DNA from: a virus
IMG/VR virus record: IMGVR_UViG_3300030329_006380
Coordinates: 1-64,000 of that record
Reading direction: 5' to 3' (one strand)
DNA length: 64,000 nt
A program made the position numbers and the translations under genes. Positions within the stretch are counted from its first letter, which is position 1. Each line of letters opens with the position of its first letter. Of this stretch, positions 1-50,211 are shown one piece after another. The notes under the pieces were generated by a model. The model made no database searches. It worked only from the letters and a program-made list of their open reading frames with translations, and was not told the origin of the DNA.

Positions 1-23
1 GCTTCGCTGCCCCCGCTCGTTAA

Positions 24-51
24 TTAGACGGACGGGGCAGCTTTTTATTCA
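24..51 (-). promoter_or_regulatory. Bipartite repeat element copy A (TGAATAA-N14-CGTCTAA), ECF-sigma-like promoter in a hairpin
   Basis: Plus strand TTAGACG 24-30 and TTATTCA 45-51, 14-nt gap; inverted repeat 6-13/34-41; would serve a gene beyond the left edge. Confidence 0.7.
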
Positions 52-717
52 AATTTTTTTCAACTTTTCGATATGTTCTTGAATTTCCTGAACTCTCCTG
101 TTGGCCATTTGAAGTCTGTCGGAAGCGCGCCACTCGTTAAAGTCCTTCTCCTTGAAGAGTTCAGTAACACGATCATCATTGACATAGTAGCCTTCTGGAT
201 AGTCAAAATCACGACCTAACGATACTACTTCTGATTTCATCCGCCACCCACTCTTCTCATGCTCACCAGAAATCTCTGCTAGACAAACATGACTGGTGTG
301 ATTTGAGTTCCTTACAGACTTAGCTTGGATAACAGAAGTGTGTGGATCAAAAGGGCTGATATACTTGAACAGGACGTGCGTGATCAGCACCAATGCCGAG
401 GAGTACTGGTCAGATCTGCGAACCAAAGCACCCTTACCTACGCCCCTAAGCTTGAAAACTTCTTCTACAAGCCTTCGGTACTTTCGAGTGGTTTCAACAA
501 ATTTGACGCGTATATTCTTTCGCTTGACACATGTTCTCTTTGTATGGCCGGGCTCATGACAATATGAACACTTTCTGTTTTTTACCTTGCTTCTCTCCAA
601 ATGGGCTTGCGCCCATGCATTGCCATCTTTGGCTCTTTGTTTAATTTCTGGGCATGATCTCTTGTTGTGTCCTGTTTGGTAGCAGTAACTACATCTAACT
701 GTTCCATTCCAACTCAT
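49..717 (-). CDS. Hypothetical protein with two CCHC zinc knuckles
   Basis: CSYCYQTGHNKRSC and CSYCHEPGHTKRTC both fit C-X2-C-X4-H-X4-C; GGAGG SD upstream. Confidence 0.8.
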   Translation of the reverse strand: MSWNGTVRCSYCYQTGHNKRSCPEIKQRAKDGNAWAQAHLERSKVKNRKCSYCHEPGHTKRTCVKRKNIRVKFVETTRKYRRLVEEVFKLRGVGKGALVRRSDQYSSALVLITHVLFKYISPFDPHTSVIQAKSVRNSNHTSHVCLAEISGEHEKSGWRMKSEVVSLGRDFDYPEGYYVNDDRVTELFKEKDFNEWRASDRLQMANRRVQEIQEHIEKLKKI

Positions 718-760
718 AATATCCTCCGGTTGGAGTCCTTGCCAATCCCGCTCTCGTCAC

Positions 761-788
761 TTAGACGAGTGAGGTCAAAAATTATTCA
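761..788 (-). promoter_or_regulatory. Bipartite repeat element copy B (TGAATAA-N14-CGTCTAA)
   Basis: TTAGACG 761-767, TTATTCA 782-788, 14-nt gap; 44 nt from the start at 717. Confidence 0.7.
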
Positions 789-908
789 AAAAAAATCGGG
801 CTGCTGCTCTCCTTGTTCACAGCTTACCAGCCTACCTTCATTTAGTGATTGATATGTCTAAGAAATTCACCTGACGTGCTCGTTATAGGCGTTGAGATCA
901 CTTATTTG

Positions 909-1607
909 TTAGTCCCGCTTCTTCTTTTTGAAGAGTTTCAATGCTCTCTCTTCAACAAGGAAAGGTCGGATGCCTCCAACCGGAAGAACCTGATATACTT
1001 TCGCTCCTTTGGTAGCACCCCATGGGGTTCTAGCATTGGACTTCATGATAAAATAGGCAATTGGTTTCCCATTTTTATGGGCTGGAAGTCTTGCTTCCCA
1101 GAATGCCCTATGGTGCGCATTGGCACGAATGGTAACGCATGCTCCATTCTCAAACTTTGGGTGTGCACCCCAAGCATCGAGAACTTTTTCAGCATACTTG
1201 TTTTGTGTCATTGATTTGAAGATCTTATACGAAGGTACATAATCTTCGTTTAATGTATCCTTGAACGAGATTCGAGGATTATAGTTTGGATCCCCTGCTC
1301 TGAGGCCAATTGCTTTTTCAACTTCGCCACGGTAGTAGCTAGTGTTACTATAATATATCGCGCAAATGCGGAATCGCTCTCTTGCATCCGGATCGTTTTT
1401 CCACGTCTCCTTCCAATCAGCAAGGGCTTTAATATTGGAACTTGAATATTGTTTCTCCTTCTTCTCGAAGATTTCCTTTTGTCGGGGAGAAAGAGACCTT
1501 CCCTTTACAATCTGCTCCATGAGAGATAGACAAAAATTAAGAGTCCAATCGTCTACAATGCCATTATTTCTGATAGTGTCAATAACTCTTGTTACACGCT
1601 TTCTCAT
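909..1607 (-). CDS. Hypothetical protein
   Basis: 232-aa ORF on the gene strand, directly downstream of element copy C. Confidence 0.75.
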   Translation of the reverse strand: MRKRVTRVIDTIRNNGIVDDWTLNFCLSLMEQIVKGRSLSPRQKEIFEKKEKQYSSSNIKALADWKETWKNDPDARERFRICAIYYSNTSYYRGEVEKAIGLRAGDPNYNPRISFKDTLNEDYVPSYKIFKSMTQNKYAEKVLDAWGAHPKFENGACVTIRANAHHRAFWEARLPAHKNGKPIAYFIMKSNARTPWGATKGAKVYQVLPVGGIRPFLVEERALKLFKKKKRD

Positions 1608-1646
1608 TACAATCTCTCTGTTGTGGGTCGCTGCCCGTTCTGTCTA

Positions 1647-1674
1647 TTAGACGTGCGGGGCAGCATTTTATTCA
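1647..1674 (-). promoter_or_regulatory. Bipartite repeat element copy C (TGAATAA-N14-CGTCTAA)
   Basis: TTAGACG 1647-1653, TTATTCA 1668-1674, 14-nt gap; 40 nt from the start at 1607. Confidence 0.7.
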
Positions 1675-1682
1675 AATTTTTT

Positions 1683-1898
1683 TCAACACCGTGCTGGCCG
1701 AGCTATAACTCGCAAGTCCATCACTGTGTTAGTTGTGATCAGTGGCCCCCGCTCTTCTTCATCCTTCACAAGCCATTCAACTTTAAAAAATAAATCCGAA
1801 GGGTCTTTCTGGATTACAATTCCTTTTGTCCCCTGTACTGTAATGTTTTCAACCAAATCTCCAATGTTAATATTGTTCTGTATCATGGGTGTTATCAT
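1683..1898 (-). CDS. Small hypothetical protein (KOW/SH3-like beta pattern)
   Basis: NIGDLVE...KGIVIQ...FKVEW pattern; start overlaps the upstream stop. Confidence 0.6.
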   Translation of the reverse strand: MITPMIQNNINIGDLVENITVQGTKGIVIQKDPSDLFFKVEWLVKDEEERGPLITTNTVMDLRVIARPARC

Positions 1899-2242
1899 GT
1901 CTTGTTCACCTTCCTCTTAACCATTTTAAACTTCCTGGCGATCTTCATCACTAGGGAATAAGGTACCTTGAACGTTGACTCCAAATCTCCTTGAGCAATG
2001 GGTTCAAGTCCCATACGCTTCAGTGCCCCGAAGGTATGTGACATCTTAAATGTTGTGTCCCTCACAACATACAAACCAACGTATTTATTTCCGAACCCAT
2101 CAAAAAGGTGGCAGCCATCGAACTCCTTTCCCCTTGAAACAACAATCGGAAAGCCATCTTCTCCACGCGATAAACGCAATCGTTTTTTCTTAGCAAACTC
2201 ACGAAACTTACGCTTTCCAAAATCTTTGGGCATTCTCGCCAT
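1895..2242 (-). CDS. Hypothetical basic protein
   Basis: 115-aa ORF with GAGG SD. Confidence 0.7.
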   Translation of the reverse strand: MARMPKDFGKRKFREFAKKKRLRLSRGEDGFPIVVSRGKEFDGCHLFDGFGNKYVGLYVVRDTTFKMSHTFGALKRMGLEPIAQGDLESTFKVPYSLVMKIARKFKMVKRKVNKT

Positions 2243-2261
2243 AACAATCCTCTCTAAGTGA

Positions 2262-3008
2262 TTATACTAATTCTTTTTCAAGTTCTGAAATCTTTGAACA
2301 TGCAAGTTCAAAGTACTCTTCGTTTTTTTCAATTCCAATAAATCTCCTATTATGTTTCATGGCAACAATTGCAGTTGTTCCCGATCCTAAAAAAGGATCA
2401 ATAATCAAATCCCCTTCTTCTGTAGTTGGGAGTATACAATTTTCAACCAACTTCTCAGGGAAAGAGCAAACGTGACCGTCATTTCTCGAAGGCGGGATCT
2501 TCCAAATATTAGTCAACCCTGCTTCGTTTTTCCACTGCCGAGGCTTTTGTATTTGATATACCCTCTCTTCTTGAATATGATATCTTCTAGATGGGTTGCC
2601 AATCCCACATCTATCCCATATAATTTCGCACCAAATTGGAAACTTAGCCAACCATTGCATCGGATGATGCAGGTTGCTTTGAGACCGGAAAATATTTCTA
2701 TTGTGCCAAGCAAATCTAACTTTATGATTATAAAAAATACTGCTGCGGCACACTCTCATGAGAGAGTGAATCACCGATTGTTGCCACCCTTGATATTCCC
2801 ACTCTGGCATTTCATCAAAATACCACCGCTTGTATTTTTCTGTCATAGCTTTGCTTGTTTTGGATTTTCCATAGTTTGAATATCTTTTACAAAGATTGTA
2901 TGGAGGTGAAGTAACACAAACTTCAATTGAGTTTCTCTCCAGCCCCTCCATGACTTCCATACAATCTCCAAGATAAACAACTCCATTTTTAAATTCTCTT
3001 TTCTTCAT
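2262..3008 (-). CDS. Site-specific DNA methyltransferase, beta-class N4-C/N6-A
   Basis: YLGDCME start, catalytic TSPPY near the N-terminus, SAM-binding DPFLGSGTT near the C-terminus. Confidence 0.92.
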   Translation of the reverse strand: MKKREFKNGVVYLGDCMEVMEGLERNSIEVCVTSPPYNLCKRYSNYGKSKTSKAMTEKYKRWYFDEMPEWEYQGWQQSVIHSLMRVCRSSIFYNHKVRFAWHNRNIFRSQSNLHHPMQWLAKFPIWCEIIWDRCGIGNPSRRYHIQEERVYQIQKPRQWKNEAGLTNIWKIPPSRNDGHVCSFPEKLVENCILPTTEEGDLIIDPFLGSGTTAIVAMKHNRRFIGIEKNEEYFELACSKISELEKELV

Positions 3009-3048
3009 TCTGCACTCTCGGTGTTGAGGTTTGTTCCGCGCTCATCCC

Positions 3049-3076
3049 TTAGACGAGCCAGCGAAGAATTTATTCA
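3049..3076 (-). promoter_or_regulatory. Bipartite repeat element copy D (TGAATAA-N14-CGTCTAA)
   Basis: TTAGACG 3049-3055, TTATTCA 3070-3076, 14-nt gap; 41 nt from the methyltransferase start. Confidence 0.7.
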
Positions 3077-3438
3077 CTCTTTTCTTCTGGTGCTTCGCCG
3101 CCGAATGTTAACTGCTCGTCATCTTCGAAAGTTATGATAGTTTTATTCAATGGATGCGGTTTTACATGAACCTTCAGAAAATCATTCAGTGAATCAAAAA
3201 TTGCAATTCCACCTCGTGGTGGAGGGAACAACCAGTGGATAACCACCTGTCCCGTTGCGTACTCAACCCCCTCAATTACGACACCAATGCCTGAGATTCC
3301 CGTCTCATCGTATTGTCTGGCGACTGTGAATGTTCGAATGCCCCGTGGTGCCTTTTTTGGCGGAGGCTTGGGCTTAAGGTCTTCAGTTTCTATATTTATC
3401 GCTTCGTCTTTTTCAACGTTAGTATTGTCTTCAATCAT
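3070..3438 (-). CDS. Conserved phage hypothetical protein
   Basis: RTFTVARQYDETGISGIGVVIEGV...GQVVIHW resembles a small phage protein family; start at 3438 avoids overlap with the upstream gene. Confidence 0.65.
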   Translation of the reverse strand: MIEDNTNVEKDEAINIETEDLKPKPPPKKAPRGIRTFTVARQYDETGISGIGVVIEGVEYATGQVVIHWLFPPPRGGIAIFDSLNDFLKVHVKPHPLNKTIITFEDDEQLTFGGEAPEEKSE

Positions 3439-3442
3439 TGTT

Positions 3443-3625
3443 TTAATTGATCCTATATATGCTGACAATATAATCCTTCAAAATTTTGTCGTATGTTATA
3501 TTGAAAGTTTTGTTTTTAAACCAATAAACCACACAATTAATTCCATGCATTGCATGTCTTTGGCCTTTTTCTATGATTACTCCCACATCTCCATTGATGC
3601 GAACAACCATGTCTCCCTCATTCAT
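3443..3625 (-). CDS. Small hypothetical protein (KOW-like start MNEGDMV...GDVGVII)
   Basis: 60-aa ORF packed between neighbours. Confidence 0.55.
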   Translation of the reverse strand: MNEGDMVVRINGDVGVIIEKGQRHAMHGINCVVYWFKNKTFNITYDKILKDYIVSIYRIN

Positions 3626-4544: not shown

Positions 4545-6494
4545 TTATTGTTCAATACAGATTTCTGAGAAGACAAGGCCCAGATCAATCGCCGCTAGAT
4601 CATGACGACTTAACCTAGAGAGTTCAAAGACATGCTGGCGTCCAGTTGGCACCATTGTATCCCACGGTGAATAAAAACCACTGGGCGTGAATACAAAAAG
4701 TTCCAATGGATCCCCGTCAGTCCAGCTTTCGTTTGTGACGCTTTTACATCCTGGTAATTCGCAAGGTGCCATCACATCAATAACATCAGTCGGAGTAATC
4801 TGTTCATTTGTTTGAGCTATTTCATCAGTAAACATTAATATAAATGGAGTAGCATTGTCGCGCCAATTAATTTGCAAATTATTTTGCATAGAGGCAATGT
4901 GATACACAGTATCCAAAGAGGGCTCCAGTCCTCCATCTGTCGTCATGCTGCTCAGGCTGGTAATTAAGTCTCCAATCTCGCTCAATTGTTGATAGAGCAC
5001 GGGATTCCCATCATCCTCCAGTTGACCAAACATAACAATGCCAAATTTATGCTCAGAATTATTTAATGAAGAGGCAAACATGGCGATCGCATCCCGAAGA
5101 TATGTTATATAACTGCTCATACTTCCAGAAACATCAATCGCAAAAATTATATCAGCCTTCTCAAAAACACGCTCCATATCATCAACCAATCCATTGCAAT
5201 CATTATCAATTGAATCACAGACTTCATCCTCAGGGGTCACTTCATTCTGACAACCCAGCCAAACACCGCGAAAACATCTTTCTGTTCCTGACTCGCAGAT
5301 TCCGACATCAATAGTTTGAGGTGGACCGGAATAACAATCACGAGTTATATTTTCATCTATATCCAGATCACAATCATCATCATAATTGTTGCAAAGTTCA
5401 ATCTGTGGCAGTTCTCCAACGCATTCGGACCACGTGCCATCCTCCATGCAAGTTTGTATTCCATACCCGCACATCGGGGGATTATTTCTACACACCTGTG
5501 TTTGCCCAAGTATACATGGGCACTCAAGATCTTCATCAATTGCCCCGTTGCAATTGTTGTCGATGCCATCACAGATTTCCTCAGTTGGTGCGGGAGCATC
5601 ACAGTCAACCCACTGACCATACGAACATTCTTCTATCCCGCGACCACAATCTGTCGTACACTCTTGCACCAATCCCTCGTCAACTGTGCCGTCGCAGTCG
5701 TTATCAAGCCCATCACATATTTCATTTTCAGGCAATGTGGCACCCCAGCATGTTATTTCAGCTTCGATGCAAGAGTCGCGACCGAAGTTACATTCACCAA
5801 CGTCGGTGGGGCCGCACTCGCCTCCTAAGCCTGCCATCTCATCCATAACACCATCGCAGTCATTGTCGTAACCATCACAGATCTCAGATTCTGGGCCAAT
5901 AAACTCTTCGCATTCAGACATTTCGCCGTCATAGCACTGTCGCCAACCACGAACACATGTTGAAAGAGCATCTTCATCATTATATATAATCCATGGATTT
6001 GACTCTTCTATCTCGCACGATATCCGCTTTGACCATCCCTCATCCACACTTCCATCGCAATCATCATCCACTCCATTACATAACTCATCGATTCCAGCAA
6101 ATCCTTCATCAATCTCACCGTTACAGTTATTGTCGATCTCATCACATACCTCTATTGGTTCTGGGGCGCACTCACCGCATGAATTGGTGACACCCTCGTC
6201 TTTCTCTCCATCACAGTCATTATCCAGACCGTCGCATACTTCCTCGACAGGAAGGACCTCTCCAACACACGGACCCCATGAATCTCCAAAACAAAATTTT
6301 CTTCCGCGAGTACATGCGCCTTTCATCGGACCATCAGTGCACTCCGACCAGACACCTGCCATGCATAAAGGCTCTTCGACTTCCTCTGCGGCGCCTCCGG
6401 TCGACTTAATTTGACCATCTGAGCATCCGAATAAAAAAATAAAAGCGAGCATAACCGCGTGAAGTGTTGAAGTTATGATCGCTTTCTTATTCAT
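4545..6494 (-). CDS. Putative lipoprotein with 8 Cys/Asp-rich (MopE-like metal-binding) repeats and a C-terminal vWA domain
   Basis: N-terminal signal ending FLFGC; eight C-[DN]-x2-D-[ND]-[DN]-C-[DN]-x4-D units; vWA MIDAS DVSGSMS, later FTDE. Confidence 0.85.
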   Translation of the reverse strand: MNKKAIITSTLHAVMLAFIFLFGCSDGQIKSTGGAAEEVEEPLCMAGVWSECTDGPMKGACTRGRKFCFGDSWGPCVGEVLPVEEVCDGLDNDCDGEKDEGVTNSCGECAPEPIEVCDEIDNNCNGEIDEGFAGIDELCNGVDDDCDGSVDEGWSKRISCEIEESNPWIIYNDEDALSTCVRGWRQCYDGEMSECEEFIGPESEICDGYDNDCDGVMDEMAGLGGECGPTDVGECNFGRDSCIEAEITCWGATLPENEICDGLDNDCDGTVDEGLVQECTTDCGRGIEECSYGQWVDCDAPAPTEEICDGIDNNCNGAIDEDLECPCILGQTQVCRNNPPMCGYGIQTCMEDGTWSECVGELPQIELCNNYDDDCDLDIDENITRDCYSGPPQTIDVGICESGTERCFRGVWLGCQNEVTPEDEVCDSIDNDCNGLVDDMERVFEKADIIFAIDVSGSMSSYITYLRDAIAMFASSLNNSEHKFGIVMFGQLEDDGNPVLYQQLSEIGDLITSLSSMTTDGGLEPSLDTVYHIASMQNNLQINWRDNATPFILMFTDEIAQTNEQITPTDVIDVMAPCELPGCKSVTNESWTDGDPLELFVFTPSGFYSPWDTMVPTGRQHVFELSRLSRHDLAAIDLGLVFSEICIEQ

Positions 6495-10128: not shown

Positions 10129-11700
10129 TTAAGCCTCCACTATTGCATGGTTAGTTGTAATAAGTGTTGAAGTCACTGACACGGCGTTTTGCAGTGCGCA
10201 CCTAGTAACTTTTGTTGGATCGATAATCCCAGCATCCACTAGATCGACGATGCGTCGATTAGCAAAATCATAACCATTATTTCCTTCACATTCGTACTTT
10301 ATTCTCTGGATGATAATGTCTGGCGACTCTCCGGCATTTTGAGCCATCTGGCGAACTGGCTCTGAAAGTGCCAACAAAACAATTTTCTTTCCTAGCTCCT
10401 GCTCCTCGTTGTCTGTCTCTACTTCTAAACCCTCAGAAGCTCGAATAAGCGCTGTGCCTCCGCCCGGAACAACGCCCTCTTGTTGGGCTGCCTTAACTGC
10501 TTCCAGTGCGTCAATAATCCGATGTTTTTTTTCTACCATTTCAAGTTCAGTTGCTGCCCCAACTCTAATAACTGCAATGCCAGAAGCAAGACGAGTGATG
10601 CGCCCCTGTATCCTCTCGCATTCATGAATATTATCAGTTTGATTAAGCTCTGCCTTGAGTGCTTCAATTCGCTTTTCAATTTCATCTTCATCTCCATTCC
10701 CATCCATGATGGTGGTCATATTCTTGGTGATTTCAATAGATTTCGCAACACCCAAGTGTTCTAATTTAGTTTCTTTTAATTTATGGCCTGTTTCCCGAGT
10801 AATAAACTCTGCTCCAATTGATATAGCCAGATCTTTTAGAATATCTCTTCTTTCTTGTCCATAGCAAGGAGCCTTAACTGCCGCGACCTTCATTGTTCCA
10901 CGAATGGAGTTCATAATTAATGCCGCCAAAGCTTGTCCAGAAACTTCTTCTGCGACAATCACCAGAGGCCGGCCCTCACGAGCGACAACTTCTAGAACAG
11001 GGAGCATGTCCTCAACCAATTCAATTTTAAAATCAGTAACCAACACAAATGGATTATCATATTTGGTGACTCCTCGTGATTCATCCGTGATAAATTGCGG
11101 AGATGAATATCCGGAATCAATTCTGAATCCTTCGACAATGTCTAAGGATGTCTCATAAGATCTTGCATCTTCAATTGTTATCGACCCATCATTGCCAACC
11201 AAATCAACCGCAGTGGCAATAAGTTTGCCAATAGTTTCATCACCGTTTGCTGAAATGGTGGCAATATGTTCAACATCTTCTTTCTTTTTAATTGGTTTCG
11301 ATATTTCCCGTAAACCAGAGACAATTCTTTCAATTGTTTTGTCCATCCCTCTCTTAAGCTCAATAGGTGATGCCCCCGAGATTAAATATTTCTGGGATCT
11401 CCGGAGGAGGGCTCGGGCCAAAACAGTCGCAGTGGTAGTTCCATCGCCTGCATCTGAGTTTGTTTTTGCTGCAGCCTGTTTGATTGCTTGTGCTCCTAGA
11501 TTTTCAAAGGGGTCCTCAAGATCAATAAATTTTGCAACTGTTACGCCATCTTTTGTAATAATGGGCCTAGCGTCTTTCCGCTGAATTATAACATTTCTTC
11601 CTCGGGGACCAAGCGTACTGGCAACGTTATCTGCTAAGATATTAGCCCCGTTCAGAATTTTATTTTGCAATGTTAGCTTTGATTCATATTGTTTTGGCAT
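10129..11700 (-). CDS. groEL: Chaperonin GroEL (Cpn60)
   Basis: TLGPRGRNV, ITKDGVTVA, AGDGTTTATV, GVVPGGG, GIIDPTKV; lacks the GGM tail. Confidence 0.98.
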   Translation of the reverse strand: MPKQYESKLTLQNKILNGANILADNVASTLGPRGRNVIIQRKDARPIITKDGVTVAKFIDLEDPFENLGAQAIKQAAAKTNSDAGDGTTTATVLARALLRRSQKYLISGASPIELKRGMDKTIERIVSGLREISKPIKKKEDVEHIATISANGDETIGKLIATAVDLVGNDGSITIEDARSYETSLDIVEGFRIDSGYSSPQFITDESRGVTKYDNPFVLVTDFKIELVEDMLPVLEVVAREGRPLVIVAEEVSGQALAALIMNSIRGTMKVAAVKAPCYGQERRDILKDLAISIGAEFITRETGHKLKETKLEHLGVAKSIEITKNMTTIMDGNGDEDEIEKRIEALKAELNQTDNIHECERIQGRITRLASGIAVIRVGAATELEMVEKKHRIIDALEAVKAAQQEGVVPGGGTALIRASEGLEVETDNEEQELGKKIVLLALSEPVRQMAQNAGESPDIIIQRIKYECEGNNGYDFANRRIVDLVDAGIIDPTKVTRCALQNAVSVTSTLITTNHAIVEA

Positions 11701-11715
11701 TTTTCCTCCAAATAA

Positions 11716-11750
11716 AAAACCATGTTGTGTATATTATACAACATGGTTTT
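11716..11750. repeat. Perfect 13-bp inverted repeat with 9-nt spacer overlapping the groEL -10 box
   Basis: AAAACCATGTTGT 11716-11728 / ACAACATGGTTTT 11738-11750. Confidence 0.85.
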
Positions 11751-11761
11751 GTAGGTGTCAA
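11733..11761 (-). promoter_or_regulatory. Consensus sigma70 promoter for groEL
   Basis: TTGACA (11756-11761)-N17-TATAAT (11733-11738). Confidence 0.85.
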
Positions 11762-11774
11762 GGTTTAAATTGTA

Positions 11775-16029: not shown

Positions 16030-19000
16030 TTATGCTAACATTTTAAAATTATGATAAACTGATCGCGTTGAGAACCCCCACGCATCATTATAGTCCAGTG
16101 TTCCTTGATATGGGCGATTAAGATGTACTACATCGCGGTCCTTCTTCACCGCCCAGCATCGTATCTTAACCATCTGACTACTAGAATCAGTGACATCGAG
16201 GATCCAATAATCTTTTCCTGTTTTAGTTTTCTTTCGGGTTATAGTTCTAGGGATGAACCATGCCTCCTTAAGATCAGGATCGTACTCTGATATCGGAGGA
16301 ATCATACTATCTTCAATCTTCTTCATAACCATGGGGACCATTACCTTGTGGTAAGGGAACAACCCAGTTAAAGACACAAGGAAGTTTAATTTATCTGCTT
16401 CGGAAAAATCACCCTCTGGTTCATATGTCGCTATATTTTCCAGAAGCTTCTTCTTGCTCTTTGGCCGATCAACAGCAACCGCTGACCAGAAATGTTTCAG
16501 GCCAGAAAACCTCTCGTCTATTAAACAATTCAGTGCCTGACTTCGCGCCAAAACATCGATCGCTTTTTTATTTAATTTAGAATAAACGATCGCTTCATTA
16601 AATAAAAACTCTTCGATGTCCTTGAAGGGTCGATTCGCAATAATTTGCTCCACAGCTTTATCACCCAAACCCTTGATAGATGTTAGTGGCTGAATCAGTG
16701 TCTGGCCATCCTCCGAGACACCCCAGGAAGTACCAGAGGTATTAATATTAATTGATTCTATTTCATACCCCAAGCTCTTAGCAATACCAATGGCCTGCTC
16801 CTTACGAGCTTCTGGTTCACGATCCAAAAATGCCGCTAACCATTCGGCGGGGTGATAGTTCAATAACCACGCGCACTGAAAAGACAGCAGACAATAAGAA
16901 ACAGCATGAGATTTATTGAATCCGTAGCCACTGAAGTATTCAAATGTCTGCCAAAGATTTTCTGCTTCTTGTTTGGAGAAACCCTTTTCCACGCAGCCAA
17001 CAATAAACTTCTTGTAGATCTTTTGCTTTTGCTCGGCAACTTTACCCGTACCCTTCTTGGTTAAGAGCTTACGAAGTTTGTTACCCTCCTCCAGCGACAA
17101 GTCTTTACCCAGCTTGTGGGCAAGGATCGCAATCTGCTCTTGAAAGATAAGAAACCCATAAGTGTCCGCAGTGTATTCCTCAATCAGAGGGTGAGCATAC
17201 TCAACTTCCTCAGGAAACATCTTTGCTTCAACATATTTACGATCAACTTTTGCGCTCAGTGGTCCGGGACGATAAATTGAAGTAATGGCAGATAAGTCAA
17301 TAATATTCTCTGGCTTTGCTTTGACACAAAAAGTTTGCGCACCCTTCTGAGTGAACTGGAAGATCCCAGCAAACTTACCATCATGAAATATATTTTTCCA
17401 CACTGCTTTATTTTTTAAATCAATTTTGTCTGGATGGAGATTCTCGTCATAAAACTTCCTGATTTGTGTCATTGAAGGATTTTCAATCCCGTGAACGCGT
17501 TTAAGGATATTTTCAATACACTGCTGAATCATTTCAATTGTTGAGAGACCCAGTAGATCAAATTTAATAAAGCCCATGGGCTCCAGATGACGAACATTCT
17601 GACCTTCAGACCATGGAGTTTGAGATACGCCACCTGAGTTAATCAAGGGCATGTGTTTATCTAAATCCTCGCCAACAACAACACCCCCAGCGTGACGACT
17701 AACACTTCGAATTTGCCCATGAAGAGCTTCAACGTGCTGTTTAATGTGAGGATATTTCACAAGAAAAGATTGTAGGCTGGAACTATACTGCATCACCTCG
17801 TCAAACGTCGGCACATATACCCCCGCAGAGATACCATGAGCCGCTTTGGCAGCGGGAGTAGCTTCATCCATCATCTTACTGGTAACCGTATTAACTTCTT
17901 TAAAAGGAATATTATAAAACTTTGATATATCCTTAATGAGCGAACGAAGTTTGAGTGTATTATAATTTGAAATCGGTACAACAACATTTCTGCCCCACTC
18001 CTCTATTAGAGTCTCCTTAAGACGCATCGGGTTTGCAACATCGTAATCAATATCAGGATATCCGTCGCCATCTTTTGTCAAGAACCTCTCAAACAGGAGA
18101 TCATATTTTAGTGGATCAACCTGAGTGATGCCCAGTACATACGACGTCAAAGCTCCCGCCGCAGAACCTCGTGCTGGTCCGACAAGAGATAATTCCTGTG
18201 CTTTATCGGAGATTGCCTTCATTGTCAAGAAGTACTTTGAAAACCCACGATCGCCAATAACATGAAGCTCCCTGCGTAAACGATCAATATACTCTTTATT
18301 TGTGTGAAGGTTCTTCTCTTTCAAGCCCTCAATAGCGGCACGAGCAAGAGCTTCATCTTCATCCATCCCCTCGGTTAACACGAAAGAGGGCAAACGAACA
18401 GTTCTGTCCGGAATAAAATCTTCGATGCGCTCATGAGCAATCTGATGGGTTCTTTTAATACTATCAAGAATCAATTGATCATCATACTCCTGATCGAGCT
18501 TCTGGCAATAGGTTTTATAAGATTCCCAAACTTGATCACCATTCTTGGGATATAATTCATATCCAATTTCTTCCACACTCTCTGGGAGTTCATTAGAAAG
18601 CCACGCGGGGCGTTTCTTTCCGAGCCATGCCAAGCGCTTGTATAGTTCTCGGTCTTTCCAAGCATCAGGGTTTGGATAATGCGAGTCTACTGTGGTGATC
18701 AACTCCAAGTTAAATCGCTTTGCTGTCTCAATAACAAAGTGATTGAGTTCATGCTGTTCAGGGATAGCATTCCACTGGACCTCTGCGTACCACCTGTCAC
18801 CAAAAATGTCCAACATCTTGTTAGTTGCTGTCGCCATGGCCTCTAGAACAGCCTCAGGTCCTTCCTCGCGATTCTCCCAATAACAACCAGCATAAACGCC
18901 CCCGAGACATGCTGAGGACGCAATTATACCTTCATTGTATTCCTTGAGGATATCATAATCAATTCTGGGGTATCGATAAAAATTTTCCCGCTGATAGGAA

Positions 19001-19449
19001 AGTGAAACAATTTTAAAAAGATTGTTTAAGCCAGTCTGATTTTGAGCCAACAGCACTAAGTGTCGTCGACGATTCAATATATTTTTAACCTTTCGTGTTT
19101 GTTCCTCATCTTCAACAACAGTTGCGGAGATTTCTTCTTTTTTCTTACGCTTTTTAGTTGCCTGATTCTTCTCATATTCTTCGCGCCACTCACTCAATGA
19201 GGGGGTGAAATAAGCTTCCATGCCATAAATGGCTTTGAAGTTTTTTCCAGAAGACTTCATTTTCTCTAGATGCATAAGCATGTGTGGAAGAGAGTTCATA
19301 TTTCCGTGATTCGTGATCGCATGCGCATCCAAACCATTAGAGTAAGCAAAGTCAAAATGTTCGTCAGGATAGCCCAAGCCGTCGCCAACTGAGTATCCAT
19401 CATGCGCGTGTAATCCAACAAATGGTATGTTACTTCTATTCCTGCTCAA
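16030..19449 (-). CDS. dnaE: DNA polymerase III alpha subunit (family C, DnaE) with PHP domain
   Basis: LHAH, GMEAY, SACLGG, DSH (PHP); RGSAAG, PDIDYD, RHAGGVV, KFDLLGL, YGFNKSHA. Confidence 0.98.
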   Translation of the reverse strand: MSRNRSNIPFVGLHAHDGYSVGDGLGYPDEHFDFAYSNGLDAHAITNHGNMNSLPHMLMHLEKMKSSGKNFKAIYGMEAYFTPSLSEWREEYEKNQATKKRKKKEEISATVVEDEEQTRKVKNILNRRRHLVLLAQNQTGLNNLFKIVSLSYQRENFYRYPRIDYDILKEYNEGIIASSACLGGVYAGCYWENREEGPEAVLEAMATATNKMLDIFGDRWYAEVQWNAIPEQHELNHFVIETAKRFNLELITTVDSHYPNPDAWKDRELYKRLAWLGKKRPAWLSNELPESVEEIGYELYPKNGDQVWESYKTYCQKLDQEYDDQLILDSIKRTHQIAHERIEDFIPDRTVRLPSFVLTEGMDEDEALARAAIEGLKEKNLHTNKEYIDRLRRELHVIGDRGFSKYFLTMKAISDKAQELSLVGPARGSAAGALTSYVLGITQVDPLKYDLLFERFLTKDGDGYPDIDYDVANPMRLKETLIEEWGRNVVVPISNYNTLKLRSLIKDISKFYNIPFKEVNTVTSKMMDEATPAAKAAHGISAGVYVPTFDEVMQYSSSLQSFLVKYPHIKQHVEALHGQIRSVSRHAGGVVVGEDLDKHMPLINSGGVSQTPWSEGQNVRHLEPMGFIKFDLLGLSTIEMIQQCIENILKRVHGIENPSMTQIRKFYDENLHPDKIDLKNKAVWKNIFHDGKFAGIFQFTQKGAQTFCVKAKPENIIDLSAITSIYRPGPLSAKVDRKYVEAKMFPEEVEYAHPLIEEYTADTYGFLIFQEQIAILAHKLGKDLSLEEGNKLRKLLTKKGTGKVAEQKQKIYKKFIVGCVEKGFSKQEAENLWQTFEYFSGYGFNKSHAVSYCLLSFQCAWLLNYHPAEWLAAFLDREPEARKEQAIGIAKSLGYEIESININTSGTSWGVSEDGQTLIQPLTSIKGLGDKAVEQIIANRPFKDIEEFLFNEAIVYSKLNKKAIDVLARSQALNCLIDERFSGLKHFWSAVAVDRPKSKKKLLENIATYEPEGDFSEADKLNFLVSLTGLFPYHKVMVPMVMKKIEDSMIPPISEYDPDLKEAWFIPRTITRKKTKTGKDYWILDVTDSSSQMVKIRCWAVKKDRDVVHLNRPYQGTLDYNDAWGFSTRSVYHNFKMLA

Positions 19450-21753: not shown

Positions 21754-22284
21754 TCAAATCAATTGGTATTCTTTGTCGCCCCTATATTGGACGAACCAAC
21801 TGGGTACTTTATTCAAAGGATATCTAATCTTTGGCTTTGATGCATAAAATTTTCTATAAGATTCAACGATATCGTCTGATTTAAATTTTTCGGGCATGCA
21901 CAACGGTAATGTTGTTGGTTCATGGTAGGGGAACAAACCCGGATTAAAATCAACAATCAACTCACGAAGAACCCCCTCACACTTATGAGTCTTTCCGAAT
22001 CTCTCAGTATACTCTCTCAGTAAAGCGCGCGTATGGCGCACCAAAAGCATATAATTAGCCGAAGATTCACAAACCCACTTAGTGGAAGGATGGTTCTTGT
22101 GAGTTGATCTATAGCGAGCTATCTGCCGACCAGATAGCTCATTAAGAGCAGTGGAGAGCATCTGACACGACTCTAGAATCATCTTAACTACTCTATAGTT
22201 GTCTTGAGAAACTGCAGAAGCTTCCCAGTCAATCTCTCCACACTCGTTACGTTCGATAGCAAAAATATTCATGTTTCTCCTCAA
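21754..22284 (-). CDS. Pyrimidine-dimer DNA glycosylase-like phage protein
   Basis: MNIF..., KMILESCQMLSTA, THKNHPSTKW, YTERFGKTHK. Confidence 0.75.
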   Translation of the reverse strand: MRRNMNIFAIERNECGEIDWEASAVSQDNYRVVKMILESCQMLSTALNELSGRQIARYRSTHKNHPSTKWVCESSANYMLLVRHTRALLREYTERFGKTHKCEGVLRELIVDFNPGLFPYHEPTTLPLCMPEKFKSDDIVESYRKFYASKPKIRYPLNKVPSWFVQYRGDKEYQLI

Positions 22285-27339: not shown

Positions 27340-27413
27340 CACACCCATCAGGACTCGAACCTGAAACCTACGGCTTAGAAGGCCGTTGCTCTATCCAATT
27401 GAGCTATGGGTGC
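27340..27413 (-). tRNA. tRNA-Arg (anticodon UCU)
   Basis: Full cloverleaf GCACCCA-TA-GCTC..GAGC-A-ACGGC-CTTCTAA-GCCGT-AGGTT-TCAGG-TTCGAGT-CCTGA-TGGGTGT-G; CCA not encoded. Confidence 0.97.
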
Positions 27414-27426: not shown

Positions 27427-27454
27427 TAAGACGCGTGAATGCAATTTTTATTCA
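27427..27454 (-). promoter_or_regulatory. Bipartite repeat element copy E (TGAATAA-N14-CGTCTTA) upstream of tRNA-Arg
   Basis: TAAGACG 27427-27433, TTATTCA 27448-27454, 14-nt gap; 13 nt before the tRNA 5' end. Confidence 0.65.
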
Positions 27455-30414: not shown

Positions 30415-31242
30415 TTAATTTTGAATTATGGAAGAGTAATTTAAGGTGTAGCAGTAATTCTGCTCATATGAGGTCGAAAAAATTCCAAAACCAGATTTAA
30501 TGTCTCCGGATGTAATCTTGACCTGCTCTGTTATATCTCTAAAAAGAGACCCTTTGGTCTCTAAATCTTTCTCTGAAATGGCATAATAATATTTTTTGTC
30601 GCGGATGCTCTCCAGAGGAAAAAATAATTTCTCCTCACCGGTTTCAATATTGACAATCCCTATAGTAGCTATTCTAGATATTTCAGAGACATCCGAAAAT
30701 GTTTCAACAATTGCTTTTGAATTTTCTAAAACATTAATCATATTGACTGAGGATGATATCATTTCATTTATGGAATCAAAATATTTCTTAATAGGTACAT
30801 CCCCTATTATATCGCTAACAAAATTATTGTGCACGAGAATAATATTTTTAAAAAGTCCGGATCTAGCATATTCTTGAAGTACATTAAACGTTACTCTCTC
30901 TTGTAGGCGTTTTATACCCGTTAATAATTGAACATCAGGTCTAATATATAATAAGCTTATATTACGATCTTTGATTGTCTCTAATAACCTCAATACCACT
31001 GCTGATACATGGCCGGATCCACCCAATATCAAACAAACGTCATCTTCGACATCTTGCAAAAAAGATGAGAAATCTGGGCAATTTTTTTCATATTTTTCTG
31101 GGTGGTCCTCAAAAGGTATTCTGAAGAAGTTGGCGCCAACCCTCTCTTCCGCGTCCATATATTTGACGGTGTACTGCGGAAAATATTCAAACTTTTTTGC
31201 AATTTCGCAACCGCAATTTCCTAGCCCTATGATACTATACAT
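30415..31242 (-). CDS. Divergent tubulin/FtsZ-like protein
   Basis: SIIGLGNCGCEIA (T1-like), LILGGSGHVS (degenerate T4 loop), IILVHN. Confidence 0.6.
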   Translation of the reverse strand: MYSIIGLGNCGCEIAKKFEYFPQYTVKYMDAEERVGANFFRIPFEDHPEKYEKNCPDFSSFLQDVEDDVCLILGGSGHVSAVVLRLLETIKDRNISLLYIRPDVQLLTGIKRLQERVTFNVLQEYARSGLFKNIILVHNNFVSDIIGDVPIKKYFDSINEMISSSVNMINVLENSKAIVETFSDVSEISRIATIGIVNIETGEEKLFFPLESIRDKKYYYAISEKDLETKGSLFRDITEQVKITSGDIKSGFGIFSTSYEQNYCYTLNYSSIIQN

Positions 31243-32452
31243 TTAATTTCCTCATTGCAGCGAAATTTTTCCCAGCCTTGATATTAACTTTAAAGTCTCC
31301 AAAAATCGTCCGGCGAAAAATTTCGACAATCTCCAAAACCAAATCTCGGTCAGAATCAGAAAAATCAATAACAATCGAATCATGCATGCAAAAAGCAATT
31401 TGAGAACTGGAATCTTTTAAAAAATCGTGAATCTTAACCATTTGCTGCAACATTAAATCAGATGTGGTGCTCTGAATGATATAGTTCACCGCTCGATAAT
31501 CATCACAGTCGATGGATCGCTCAAAGATGGTATTAACCTTTGAACCATCAAAGTATTTTTCTTTAACTGCATCGCGCTTATAAATCATGTCTGCTGTTCT
31601 GTGAGTTGCATTAGGATTGTAAAGCCATGCAAAGATTTTTTTCTTGGCTTCATCCCGCGAGATGTTTTCCCCACCAAAAATATTTTTCATGTTCCATTCG
31701 TGAATGTCTTCTTCTGGTTGTTTAACATTCAGGAGGCCCAAAACTGTTCTCAGTTCTGCTGCATTGAAATCCAATTCCAAAAACCAATCATTATTTGGCT
31801 TCAAAATCCCTCGAAATTTCTTATTCATGGTCAAGATAGGAAAAGAGTTCTTCATGGTTGACAGTCTTCCTGTTTTTGTACCAAAAATGTTATATAAGGG
31901 GGTATTTTTTGTGCTCTGGAGCCTCTTGAAGAAGTTCCGTGCCTCAATAGTCGATAGATGGCCACGAAGAGGTTTTTCGTCAATATTTAGCTCTCTAGCG
32001 CCAATTTCCTCAACAACCTTAGAAAGCTCATAAAGAAGGTCGTAGTTTTTGGGTTTTTCATATGTCTCGAAGACATGTTCACAAATTTCATTCTTGAGGT
32101 GACAATATTCGAGCAGAAATTTTTCTGGGATCATATCAAAAAAGCAAAAATCATCCATGGAAATTTTTGCTGTTGCAAAAGAGAGAAGAAACGCTTTCAA
32201 TTTCTTCGTCGCCTTGTTCCACTCTGGTTTTAAAAATTCTGGGCACACTTCATCAAGTTGTTTCCCATTGCAGTATAAACTGGCACACTCAACTTCATGA
32301 CCGTTTAGGTGTCGAGTATATTTCCATGTTTTTGTTAATTTTTTTCTAGAAGGTATTCTGGGGTGGATCGATCCATTCATGTAAATGCCGCGGCATTCTG
32401 CTTTATTGTCTAAAATCTGAAATAACACAATTCCCTCGCTATAAATTGACAT
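31235..32452 (-). CDS. Compact family-A DNA polymerase without exonuclease domains
   Basis: TGRLS, motif A LDFNAAELR, motif B RDEAKKKIFAWLY, AVNYIIQSTTSD, motif C MHDS. Confidence 0.8.
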   Translation of the reverse strand: MSIYSEGIVLFQILDNKAECRGIYMNGSIHPRIPSRKKLTKTWKYTRHLNGHEVECASLYCNGKQLDEVCPEFLKPEWNKATKKLKAFLLSFATAKISMDDFCFFDMIPEKFLLEYCHLKNEICEHVFETYEKPKNYDLLYELSKVVEEIGARELNIDEKPLRGHLSTIEARNFFKRLQSTKNTPLYNIFGTKTGRLSTMKNSFPILTMNKKFRGILKPNNDWFLELDFNAAELRTVLGLLNVKQPEEDIHEWNMKNIFGGENISRDEAKKKIFAWLYNPNATHRTADMIYKRDAVKEKYFDGSKVNTIFERSIDCDDYRAVNYIIQSTTSDLMLQQMVKIHDFLKDSSSQIAFCMHDSIVIDFSDSDRDLVLEIVEIFRRTIFGDFKVNIKAGKNFAAMRKLNV

Positions 32453-42851: not shown

Positions 42852-42884
42852 TCCTTAGGTATATCTCTTTCTTAAATAGTGTTT

Positions 42885-42920
42885 AAAAAAAAATAAGGCC
42901 GGCTAGTGGCCGGCCTTATA
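42885..42920 (-). terminator. Intrinsic terminator
   Basis: ATAAGGCCGGC-CACTA-GCCGGCCTTAT then T-run. Confidence 0.85.
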
Positions 42921-42925
42921 TAAAA

Positions 42926-43132
42926 TCATCTTTTTGCTTTCTTCATTGCATCTTCTGAGGCCTTGTTTTCATCTTCAATTTGCTTAACCAACCTCTGTAG
43001 AAACCATCGTCTAATAACAATTGGAAGATTATAAGCTTCAAAAAAGCTCCAGCCACCATAATATTTTAATAAGAAAAATTCTTCGTATACTGCTTCTATA
43101 TATTTATCACTTAGGCCAAAAAAATTCCGCAT
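42926..43132 (-). CDS. Small tail-assembly protein (possible frameshift extension of the upstream chaperone)
   Basis: FFGLSDKYIEAVYEEFFLLKYYGGWSFFEAYNLPIVIRRWF; overlaps the upstream ORF across a T7 run. Confidence 0.7.
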   Translation of the reverse strand: MRNFFGLSDKYIEAVYEEFFLLKYYGGWSFFEAYNLPIVIRRWFLQRLVKQIEDENKASEDAMKKAKR

Positions 43133-43973
43133 TCAGCGGAACCTCCAGTATGGTTTCTGAACCACAGTGTTCGCAAAGAAATTCATGACTCATATCAATT
43201 GTCGGCATTGAAGCCTCGTAGGCTTCCCTTAAAAATCTAGAATCACGGGCCGGCATCACATTGATAAAATTACTAATTAATCCAGGCCTCTCGTCGCCGT
43301 TAACAGATACGATAAGCGATTTAAATAAATCAGTAACAATTGATTCTGGTAGTTTATTCTTCTTTTTTCTAGTCACCATTGAAGATATTTTCTTCTCATC
43401 GTTGCCTCGCAAAAGTCTGAACTTCACTTCCACGCCCGAAATTGGCAATTTCAATAAAAAATACCCTTCTGGGTCAACCTTGAGGCCATAAGAGTCATAA
43501 TCCTCTGCATGGTTAATTGGACATAAAAGTAAATTAAAATCATATTCACTGACTCCTGCACATGATGGGCATGTAACTTTTGTCTCATATGATTCTCCAT
43601 ATCCAGTAATTCTTGCTGCGATCATTAAAGCGTTTTTATCGCCAACTAACATATCGTCTAGACGAATGGATTTATCCATTATAATATTTTGCAAGAAACG
43701 GTCAATCGCAACCCCTTTCTTTAAAAGAGTTTTAGAAGACAATATATCTTCATCTTTCGCAATCATATACCTTATCTCTATACTTTCTCTGCCGTGTAAA
43801 GGATGGCCCTCGGGATAATATCTCCCGCGAGAAGGAAGCTCAACAAATTGTGTCGGTAATGTAAAAGAAAAAGCATGTTCTTGTTCGGGCTTATCTTGTA
43901 CGATGGGGGGAATAGGTAAATCCGGTGCAAAATCCTTCACACCGGATCTCTCTTCATTATTTCTCCTAGTCAT
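43107..43973 (-). CDS. Baseplate hub assembly / tail assembly chaperone (T4 gp26-like)
   Basis: VELPSRGRYYPEGHPL, EDIL, GDKNALMIAARITGYG, CPSC and CEHC pairs. Confidence 0.8.
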   Translation of the reverse strand: MTRRNNEERSGVKDFAPDLPIPPIVQDKPEQEHAFSFTLPTQFVELPSRGRYYPEGHPLHGRESIEIRYMIAKDEDILSSKTLLKKGVAIDRFLQNIIMDKSIRLDDMLVGDKNALMIAARITGYGESYETKVTCPSCAGVSEYDFNLLLCPINHAEDYDSYGLKVDPEGYFLLKLPISGVEVKFRLLRGNDEKKISSMVTRKKKNKLPESIVTDLFKSLIVSVNGDERPGLISNFINVMPARDSRFLREAYEASMPTIDMSHEFLCEHCGSETILEVPLNAEFFWPK

Positions 43974-43995
43974 TTTAACCTCTTAGTTATTGTTT

Positions 43996-44499
43996 TTAGC
44001 CCAAAGAATACTTGGCATAATCATAACGAAGAGTAAGTGTAAGATCAACCATACCTTCGCCTTCATAATCCAACTCTCCCAATGCAGCCTTTTGAATCCA
44101 AGCATTGTAGATAGTGAATCGATTATTTGTTTGGCCTTCGGGTGTCAATTCATGGATCGTCATCTGTCCAAAGGAATTAACAGCTAGAGCTTTACTAATT
44201 GTACTTCGGACATTGGGGTTTTCCGGAAAGAAATACCCTGCTTGCTGTAATTTAAAATAGAGCTTAGCGGTGGAATCAGCGGCACCACCGGGATCAACAA
44301 TTGTAAGATCTATAGCATCCCAAGTCACTCGACCAGGATACCAAAAGCTGTGGTTTAAAAATTTATGCTCGGTCTCACCCACCGTAAAGGAAGGGCGGGT
44401 GACCTTTTTAGCGATCCAGTGATCAAAGTCTTCAACATAGACAACCCAACGATGTTGTCTTTTCGGTTCAATAGCAGGGTTCGCCCAGAAATTAGACAT
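43996..44499 (-). CDS. Tail tube protein (gp19-like)
   Basis: EPKRQHRW, KVTRPSF, YPGRVTWDAI, LTLRYDYA; directly after the sheath. Confidence 0.88.
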   Translation of the reverse strand: MSNFWANPAIEPKRQHRWVVYVEDFDHWIAKKVTRPSFTVGETEHKFLNHSFWYPGRVTWDAIDLTIVDPGGAADSTAKLYFKLQQAGYFFPENPNVRSTISKALAVNSFGQMTIHELTPEGQTNNRFTIYNAWIQKAALGELDYEGEGMVDLTLTLRYDYAKYSLG

Positions 44500-44547
44500 A
44501 TCTTTATCTCCTATAAGTGCCTCAAATTAATTAGTAGACACTTAACT

Positions 44548-47469: not shown

Positions 47470-47562
47470 TTGAATTTATCTCCTTAATTTTAAACGTATA
47501 ACACGATAAAAACTATATATTTTCTAGAGTAAATAGTTTATCATAAGAGCAAACACCATTTA

Positions 47563-48420
47563 TTACTCTCTATAAAACCCTTTTTTCCCAATATGGTCCT
47601 GTATATCGCCTAATATTACGCGCTCGCGAGGTATTTTGACCTCTACGGCATTTTCCCTAATTACCATCTTGGGCGCCTTTTGGTTCTTGTCACTACCAAT
47701 TAAATACGCCAGAACTTTAAATGATATAGTTGTTTTATATTGCCTTTCTGCTACTTCTAGTGTCGCAATATTATTGTCTTGCTTATAATCCCCGTCAACA
47801 AAAACTTCGTAGGAATGGCCATTTTTTCTTACTACCTCCTGAGAGGCTCGGCCGGGGATTGCTATGAATGGAATTACTATTTCATTAATTTGTTGTTGAT
47901 ATTCCGCTATTACAGATAAACTATAATTAACCTCAACGAAGACCGGGTTGGGTATTGTTATTGTTTCATAAACAACCTTTTCATTCGGCCTATTTCTGTT
48001 TCTAAAGTTTCTTTGATTATACAATCTCTTGGAATCGGCATTAGCAAAATTTGAAGTCTTTTTTTGATTTATTCTTCGAGCAATCGTTATTGAACCTTGT
48101 TTTTCGTCTTTCACTCCGGGAATATTCGAATACATCATATTGCCTGCACTTTTATCTCTTGTCAGCGACACTCGCTCAAGGGTCATAATAGGTAAATTTA
48201 TCGATCCAGAGGGAGTCATCAACTCTTTATTATGCTTTCTCTGATATGCTCTCTCAGATGAGATCCATACAACCGGCACCTTTTTGAATCCATCTCGGGT
48301 GGTACAATGTATATCAAACCTCTGATCAATATGTTCAAACATTGCTGTATCGATACCTTCAATTGTCGAAGGTTGAAATGGTATTTCTCTTAATTTAAGT
48401 TTTTTATTATTAGCTTGCAT
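47563..48420 (-). CDS. Tail completion / sheath terminator (gp15-like)
   Basis: VPVVWISSERA, LPIMTLER; position after the neck genes; start 48420 preferred. Confidence 0.65.
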   Translation of the reverse strand: MQANNKKLKLREIPFQPSTIEGIDTAMFEHIDQRFDIHCTTRDGFKKVPVVWISSERAYQRKHNKELMTPSGSINLPIMTLERVSLTRDKSAGNMMYSNIPGVKDEKQGSITIARRINQKKTSNFANADSKRLYNQRNFRNRNRPNEKVVYETITIPNPVFVEVNYSLSVIAEYQQQINEIVIPFIAIPGRASQEVVRKNGHSYEVFVDGDYKQDNNIATLEVAERQYKTTISFKVLAYLIGSDKNQKAPKMVIRENAVEVKIPRERVILGDIQDHIGKKGFYRE

Positions 48421-48895
48421 CAAATAATCCTTTTCTCGAAAGAATACATTTTGCAGAAATTTCAAAACGATGTTCAATTTGTCCAAATAATTGTTTAGGT
48501 TCTGAAAGAGAAACGATTTCAAAATACAAATCACCATACAACACAAAATCACCTTCTCTTACGAATAAATCCTGATCTTCTGTCAATCTTCTTTTATGGA
48601 AGTTAACTGTTATTTCGGATTTCCTATCCAAGGCACCATTGGACATCCATGAGGTTTCAAAGTTATCCCATGCAATCAATGCATATACGCGCACCGGTGG
48701 CAAAAATGTTTTTTTCATTGCTTCACCATAAATTGGGTGAAAATTCGTATGTTCTAGATCAATCGAATAATAAAGAATTTGCTGGCCAATGACTCTCTCA
48801 ATTAACTCATCATTAACTTGCTTAACGAGATTCCTCTCTTTCTCTCCTAAGAATAAAGGAGGTGGTGGCTGATCTGGCTGTTCCCACTCGGACAT
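48410..48895 (-). CDS. Neck / head-closure protein (gp14-like)
   Basis: QQILYY...HPIYGEA...VREGDFV...FEI. Confidence 0.7.
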   Translation of the reverse strand: MSEWEQPDQPPPPLFLGEKERNLVKQVNDELIERVIGQQILYYSIDLEHTNFHPIYGEAMKKTFLPPVRVYALIAWDNFETSWMSNGALDRKSEITVNFHKRRLTEDQDLFVREGDFVLYGDLYFEIVSLSEPKQLFGQIEHRFEISAKCILSRKGLFDAS

Positions 48896-48908
48896 TCATT
48901 TTTCTCCT

Positions 48909-50183: not shown

Positions 50184-50211
50184 AATATTCTCTCCTCACA
50201 GTAAGTAGTTT

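Follow-up and report, generated by a model that had tools for sequence, protein, structure and literature searches.

The stretch of DNA analysed here (the window, 64,000 nt) is the first 64 kb of the IMG/VR contig IMGVR_UViG_3300030329_006380 (G000; 136,483 nt, estimated 62% complete), which derives from an uncultured marine T4-like phage and carries almost all of its genes on the minus strand. An earlier note, made from the letters of the window, had listed four copies of a two-box element, TGAATAA-N14-CGTCTAA, among the accessory genes at the start of the window and had read them as promoters of the extracytoplasmic-function (ECF) sigma type. All four were recovered as exact matches on the minus, or coding, strand, and a one-mismatch search of the whole contig added a single extra copy on the same strand (copy 5), as shown in Table 1. 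Only about 0.001 exact copies are expected in a contig of this length; at up to two mismatches, six matches were observed against a mean of 0.68 in shuffled sequences, and none of the 100 shuffles reached six. Among the CGTCTAA words of the whole contig, four of six on the coding strand have TGAATAA exactly 14 nt before them, against none of four on the other strand.

Copies 2, 3 and 4 each precede an accessory gene, which agrees with the claim that the element punctuates genes for a zinc-knuckle protein, a methyltransferase and unknown proteins. Their distances to the start codons were recounted as 43, 39 and 40 nt, and the small mismatch with the 40, 41 and 44 nt given earlier comes from counting differences. 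The methyltransferase gene of the copy 4 unit is followed by two small open reading frames (ORFs), 1895-2242 and 1683-1898. The stop codon of the upstream ORF is the TGA or TAA within the first box at copies 1, 4 and 5, and copies 1 and 3 have about 45 nt in common, including 13 nt upstream of the motif, so that the shared segment reaches into the coding sequence of the upstream ORF. An uncertain variant with a 15-nt spacer, which may be an internal promoter, is also present in the relative G009 (4592-4620). A match with two mismatches at 31162-31189 was not counted, as it consists of codons of a tubulin/FtsZ-like gene that are conserved as codons in relatives; this gene occupies 30415-31242 and encodes an N-terminal IIGLGNCG motif.

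Table 1. Motif copies, associated hairpins and downstream genes in the window (positions 1 to 64,000; promoter assignments and hairpins are predictions).
Feature	Position	Strand	Remarks
Putative promoter copy 1 (exact)	24..51	-	ORF 49-717 ends with the TGA of the first box; only 23 nt to the contig end, so the downstream gene is lost
Putative promoter copy 2 (exact)	761..788	-	43 nt 5' of the ATG of the CCHC zinc-knuckle gene
Putative promoter copy 3 (exact)	1647..1674	-	39 nt 5' of the ATG of the 232-aa gene
Putative promoter copy 4 (exact)	3049..3076	-	40 nt 5' of the DNA methyltransferase ATG; ORF 3070-3468 ends with the TAA of the first box
Putative promoter copy 5 (one mismatch, second box CGTCTTA)	27427..27454	-	13 nt 5' of tRNA-Arg(TCT), 27340-27413; no hairpin
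Possible N15-spaced variant, second box CGTCCAA (uncertain)	21787..21815	-	within the terminal part of the preceding gene; ATG at 21744 about 43 nt further on
Hairpin, copy 1	6..41	-	5' arm 33-41 in the spacer, box in the loop, 3' arm 6-15; fold -21.1 kcal/mol
Hairpin, copy 2 (short)	753..769	-	arms 764-769 and 753-758; second box partly in the stem; -11.9 kcal/mol
Hairpin, copy 3	1630..1664	-	5' arm 1656-1664, box in the loop, 3' arm 1630-1637; -17.4 kcal/mol
Hairpin, copy 4	3034..3065	-	second box itself base-paired; -15.6 kcal/mol
Gene under copy 2, 222-aa protein with two CCHC zinc knuckles	49..717	-	from alignment
Gene under copy 3, 232-aa protein with helical N-terminal and Tudor/SH3-like C-terminal part	909..1607	-	from alignment
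Gene under copy 4, N6/N4 DNA methyltransferase	2262..3008	-

Relatives were retrieved through the core protein whose gene adjoins copy 5, and whole records were then searched for the pattern. In the contig G001 (47 kb; 65% identical in the core protein), 33 copies match with one mismatch at most and about 40 with two at most. G007 (64 kb; in synteny with G000 at 50-65% protein identity) holds 18 and L277 holds 16 exact copies, and none of these three contigs has a copy on the other strand; G009 contributed two copies. Seven copies head the leftward early operon of G006, a 20-kb phage contig with a GC content of 53% that has no protein in common with G000, and its other strand has only one, at two mismatches. 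A metagenome scan disclosed many more marine contigs with strand-consistent motif arrays, while the matches from an exact-pattern scan of IMG/VR were mostly chance or coding sequence. The motif was not found in the whole records of the more distant T4-like relatives G002-G005, G010 and G023. When the half-sites were paired at any spacing from 5 to 30 nt in five phage records, 58 of the 62 coding-strand pairs were separated by exactly 14 nt and no pair was detected on the other strand; the sequence of the spacer varies freely among copies, so the varying spacer of invariant length described from four copies holds for the larger set.

The position of the copies relative to genes is equally regular. 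A Shine-Dalgarno sequence and an ORF start follow within 10-60 nt (median 31) after 49 of the 77 copies, compared with 13-19% of random positions, and the copies of the relatives lie about 20-46 nt before start codons. This is the enrichment upstream of starts for which the earlier note had proposed a scan; random placement with respect to strand and gene start, which would have favoured a recombination site or RNA element, was not observed, the motif being confined to the coding strand in G000, G001, G007 and L277. Stable-RNA genes follow copies as well, tRNA genes at distances of 13, 9, 16 and 28 nt and a transfer-messenger RNA (tmRNA) gene at 16 nt. Genes for tRNA and tmRNA require no ribosome site, and the signal therefore acts at or before the 5' end of the transcript. 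The position of copy 5 is kept in relatives: G000, G001 and G009 all carry the motif 3' of the 327-aa core gene, with unrelated spacers, whereas in more remote relatives this place is taken by TTGACA-N17-TATAAT-like promoters.

The phage-encoded tmRNA genes themselves (L182:7719-8052 in G001 and L277:12790-13123) are 94% identical and specify the tag peptide ANNNDSYSQVALAA, which might hint at the host. The gene is located 16 nt after a motif copy in L277 and 61 nt after one in G001.

ECF promoters have two conserved boxes at a fixed spacing, about 16 nt from a GAAC-like -35 box to a CGT- or TCxxA-like -10 box, and such an arrangement was found here, the 14 nt between the 7-mers corresponding to N16 in sigmaE numbering. 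The sigmaE promoters of E. coli read GGAACTT-N16-TCAAA with an A/T-rich region upstream (PMC1312014), and the phage motif has equal geometry, GAATAA-N16-TCTAA with an upstream A/T-rich tract. The promoters of cellular ECF (group 4) sigmas resemble it further in the CGTC-type -10 box and in the very high conservation of both boxes. The ECF-type geometry proposed earlier is supported beyond such resemblance by a bacterial locus (L323), retrieved via the motif, in which a zf-HC2 anti-sigma gene comes after an ECF sigma gene whose product exceeds the cut-offs of Sigma70_r2, r4_2 and Sigma70_ECF. An exact motif copy precedes this sigma gene by 14 nt, and a second exact copy stands before a secreted-protein gene.

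A comparison with 80 genomic homologues of the L323 sigma revealed TGAATAT-N14-CGTCTAA (two with N15) located 12-35 nt before the start of the sigma gene in 33 homologues from Thermodesulfobacteriota, and TGAATA-N15 followed mostly by CGTCCAA located 28-40 nt upstream in homologues from Polyangiaceae and other myxobacteria. The motif was not found at the more remote homologues among the 80. In all, about 45 bacterial homologues have it with at most two mismatches, 12-40 nt 5' of the ECF sigma gene, and the loci L240 and L271 have it arranged before the sigma gene as in L323. Since the same boxes at the same spacing stand at the autoregulatory position of about 45 bona fide ECF sigma genes, a genuine clade of ECF sigmas has this motif as its autoregulatory promoter, with boxes that match those of the phages. 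These cellular sigmas belong to metagenome-assembled genomes (MAGs) of Thermodesulfobacteriota and myxobacteria from soil, peat and groundwater.

A separate family of viral contigs in IMG/VR (L015, L020, L043, L059, L069, L070, L104 and others) holds the exact motif with free spacers, placed between a gene whose product ends in ...EEK and a signal-peptide protein gene. This arrangement resembles the second target promoter of the L323 locus.

Sequence comparison makes it very probable that the two-box element is an ECF-type (group 4) sigma promoter. Its function as a promoter is supported by the absolute strand bias, by the fixed spacing with varying spacer, by the position ahead of both start codons and genes for tRNA and tmRNA, and by the sigma70 promoters that occupy the same locus in distant relatives. 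There are also differences from the cellular systems. A cellular ECF regulon consists of stress genes, whereas the phages carry several to tens of copies each, apparently driving unrelated accessory genes and tRNAs; many phage copies are embedded in a hairpin; and the neighbourhood of the phage sigma gene described next showed no anti-sigma gene.

Profile searches of G000, G001, G006, G007 and G009 for sigma domains yielded only a gp55-like late sigma (L006:1141-1851), which is the only sigma of G000, and spurious weak matches. In L277, a 217-aa protein gave a full-length match to the ECF superfamily model TIGR02937 (50.4 bits, cut-off 42.9). It shares 29% identity with the L323 sigma and has no close homologue in cultured phages, and none in IMG/VR by peptide patterns. 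Its gene is placed directly past the last motif cassette, with TTGACA-N17-TAAATT and two more sigma70-like sites upstream. L277 shares with G001 the cassette design, proteins of the hyperplastic region and the tmRNA gene, and L290 is the L277 sequence from another sample. A second relative of G001, L274, encodes a sigma that is 48% identical to that of L277 over region 4. The ECF sigma genes of both L277/L290 and L274 adjoin motif arrays. The G001 contig ends in a gene whose L277 homologue sits about 2.6 kb upstream of the sigma gene, and the G000, G001 and G007 contigs all end inside cassette arrays, which suggests that cassette repeats break the metagenome assemblies of this clade. The near-complete relatives that lack the motif, G002 (89%) and G023 (100%), showed the gp55-like sigma only.

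We set the two possibilities of the earlier note, a host stress-induced ECF sigma or a phage-encoded one, against these loci. The search for an ECF sigma gene that it had proposed gave none in the 136-kb, 62%-complete G000 and did give one in L277/L290 and in L274, which favours a phage-encoded sigma and makes a host stress-induced one less likely. The sigma that reads the motif in the G000 phage is thus most likely encoded by the phage itself, as far as sequence relationships can tell, and we put the probability of the whole reading, ECF-type promoters served by a phage-encoded sigma, at roughly 0.58.

Several observations weigh against this reading. Searches with Sigma70_r2, Sigma70_r4_2 and the ECF superfamily model detected no ECF sigma gene in the 136-kb contig or in the available parts of G001, G007 and G006, and a phage sigma is linked to the motif through two partial relatives. 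The -35 box contains GAAT and not the usual GAAC of ECF promoters. The motifs that open the early operon of G006, a phage with no G000 protein, are equally consistent with a host sigma and with a private one. The recurrence of the downstream genes must also be read with care: the most recurrent proteins across the motif arrays of marine contigs were the 232-aa protein (11 loci) and then the zinc-knuckle protein (8 loci), with the motif upstream of the homologues in nine of the 11 and six of the eight loci at only 24-37% identity, but these loci were retrieved via the motif itself and the counts of co-occurrence are biased upward.

The same facts nourish the strongest alternative, in which the promoters are of the same ECF type but the ECF sigma that serves them belongs to the host and is active, or becomes induced, during infection, so that the phage borrows a sigma and encodes none. 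In its favour, no ECF sigma was found in the sequenced 62% of the G000 genome; the boxes common to G000 and the unrelated G006 would suggest a shared host factor; and cellular ECF sigmas with exactly this promoter do exist. Those sigmas, however, come from soil, peat and groundwater MAGs, which are not obvious marine hosts, and hanging dozens of genes on a stress sigma would be risky for a lytic phage. Two relatives within the clade encode their own ECF sigma beside the arrays, and G000 breaks inside its array, where in L277 the sigma gene follows about 2.6 kb further on. We consider such borrowing possible and rather unlikely.

Other candidate readers of the motif were examined and rejected. 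A Cys-rich protein of 84-105 aa that ends in a sigma-region-4-like helix-turn-helix is encoded in G007 (31782-32036; L196:1468-1722, minus strand), G003, G004, G005, G010, G011, G014 and G018. The 84-aa form of G007 was discarded as the reader, as relatives that lack the motif encode the protein too, and G000, G001 and G006 have no homologue of it. A 194-aa ORF of G006 with a weak region-4 match was set aside because its sequence and position resemble a small terminase-type helix-turn-helix protein. The possibility of a hidden sigma among the 232-aa and zinc-knuckle proteins was also rejected; their alignments show a Tudor/SH3-like domain and CCHC knuckles, respectively, and no sigma domains.

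A predicted hairpin accompanies four of the five copies of G000 and the majority of those in G001, L277 and G006: C-rich sequence of the spacer pairs with G-rich sequence immediately 3' of the second box, which places CGTCTAA in the loop or partly in the stem. When the two arms of a copy were compared with swapped arms, the own pair was the better one both in G001 (p = 0.0002) and in G006 (p = 0.01); the test was not significant for the five copies of G000 nor for L277, whose arms are alike. The hairpin was not found in the 15 distinct copies of G007 tested or in the core-region copies, which keep both boxes and the spacing, and it is therefore not needed for promoter recognition. Intrinsic terminators were not recognised either: the loops measure 5-17 nt, no T-run follows the stems on the coding strand, a terminator consensus scan listed no motif hairpin on that strand, and no Rfam family matches at the copies. 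A transcript begun after the second box would lack the 5' arm, and the hairpin could therefore form only in read-through RNA or in DNA. By analogy with the PeSL stem-loop of T4-type phages, it may serve as a 3' end, stabiliser or insulator for the read-through RNA of the upstream message.

More speculatively, the hairpin could be a working part of a switch. With the -10 box in the loop of a stem of co-varying arms, each cassette would combine an end signal for the upstream transcript with a start signal for the next gene, or the -10 box would be presented as extruded single-stranded DNA, as in the hairpin promoters of the phage N4 virion polymerase, or be bound by the recurrent CCHC zinc-knuckle protein of the arrays. 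The two knuckles of this protein are of the retroviral type, and single-stranded nucleic acid is the usual ligand of zinc knuckles. Together with a private ECF sigma, the hairpin would then make up a self-contained portable module that spread between unrelated marine phages. We regard this extension as doubtful.

Elsewhere in the window, at 11701-11774 on the minus strand, a 12-bp hairpin with a T-run behind it encloses in its loop the -10 box of a perfect TTGACA-N17-TATAAT promoter (11733-11761). This nested sigma70 promoter and terminator-like hairpin sits just before the gene 10129-11700, and the nesting of promoters inside hairpins may be a habit of the lineage.

A primary role at the level of RNA or DNA structure, such as processing, a 3' stabiliser or terminator, protein binding or cassette recombination, with promoter activity secondary or absent, would account for a hairpin that encloses the box so often and for arms that pair best with their own partners in G001 and G006. 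The 45-nt segment that copies 1 and 3 share into upstream coding sequence is what would be expected after cassette recombination, and three contigs of the clade end inside arrays. Against this stand the G007 and core-region copies with boxes and spacing but no hairpin, the fixed-length spacer of free sequence, which is a mark of DNA recognition, and the stems without a U-tract or an Rfam match. The copies before tRNA genes and the exchange with sigma70 promoters indicate initiation, and cassette recombination is compatible with promoter function and secondary to it. We judge a primarily structural role very improbable.

Least probable of all is a promoter that needs no ECF sigma, read by host sigma70 polymerase redirected by a phage activator on TGAATAA, as by MotA/AsiA of T4, or by another phage-modified polymerase: T4-type phages have such a middle mode, with Mot boxes in the PmSL cassettes of phage nt-1 (PMC4122927), copies 1 and 3 hold a weak sigma70 look-alike (TTGAAT and TCTAAT at 18-nt spacing), and the small region-4-like protein is conserved in the clade, but that protein is also conserved where the motif is absent and was not detected in G000, profile searches of G000, G001, G006, G007 and G009 found no MotA-like gene, a sigma70 -10 box accords neither with the invariant CG ahead of TCTAA nor with C at the critical position -11, and the exact boxes at real ECF sigma genes point to direct ECF recognition.

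Under the reading with a phage-encoded ECF sigma, TGAATAA would be the -35 box and CGTCTAA would contain the -10 box, with transcription predicted to start about 5-8 nt past the second box. The resulting leaders would be short with a Shine-Dalgarno sequence before the accessory genes and very short before the tRNA genes. Host sigma70 would transcribe the phage ECF sigma gene early, by analogy with L277, and the ECF sigma would then fire the cassettes; in the G000 phage, the sigma gene would lie in the unsequenced part, just beyond the array at the contig break. The promoters would be portable short cassettes of promoter, leader and Shine-Dalgarno sequence scattered over the hyperplastic region, like the PeSLs of T4-type phages. 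Such a class might be delayed-early or middle, between the sigma70 promoters and the late promoters of the gp55 type. The third transcription class suggested in the earlier note is plausible, as the contig has both a perfect sigma70 promoter and, apart from it, a motif of the late type.

In the current view, T4-like phages use host sigma70 for early genes, sigma appropriation for middle genes (in the T-evens only) and gp55 for late genes. A full-text literature search returned nothing on ECF-type promoters in T4-like phages. The closest likeness to the proposed cascade is phiEco32, whose gp36, a phage-encoded two-domain sigma, reads middle and late promoters together with gp79 after early transcription by sigma70 (PMC12276001); there too, a phage sigma made by sigma70 transcription opens a private promoter class. 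The gp36 promoter is different, with AATGTA centred at -11.5 (PMC12276001), and gp36 is a distant sigma homologue from a podovirus, whereas the L277 sigma passes the ECF superfamily model. Unlike phiEco32, the G000 lineage keeps a gp55-like late sigma, so that an ECF class would be an added layer.

The arrays are also similar to the PeSL and PmSL elements of T4-type phages (PMC2839356, PMC4122927), which are short repeated cassettes of an A/T-rich tract, promoter, stem-loop, Shine-Dalgarno sequence and ATG located between small ORFs of the hyperplastic region, and near-identical copies hint at cassette recombination in both. A repeated intergenic cassette with promoter, stem-loop and Shine-Dalgarno sequence in a T4-like hyperplastic region was found here, as in PeSLs; the type of promoter and the place of the stem-loop differ. 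PeSLs have a sigma70-type and PmSLs a MotA-type promoter with the stem-loop upstream of it (PMC4122927), whereas the present promoters are of the ECF type and the stem-loop straddles the -10 box.

A private ECF sigma with portable cassettes would, if true, tell for one clade how the many marine T4-like phages without MotA/AsiA time their middle genes, and would also explain the assembly breaks in accessory regions. As a simple sequence tag, the motif can help to annotate the transcription units of uncultured phages, and together with the sigma it provides an orthogonal sigma/promoter pair for testing.

Two further features of the window concern late transcription and replication. In the gaps of 42852-53211, ACTAYTTA-like words recur before structural genes and are probably late promoters of the gp55 type. 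The replicative polymerase encoded at 16030-19449 is DnaE-like (Pol III alpha type) and not of the T4 gp43 type, and it stands beside T4-like virion genes. The best identity to proteins of cultured phages had a ceiling of about 35% for the two query proteins, the late sigma and the DnaE-type polymerase, the latter reaching at most 31%.

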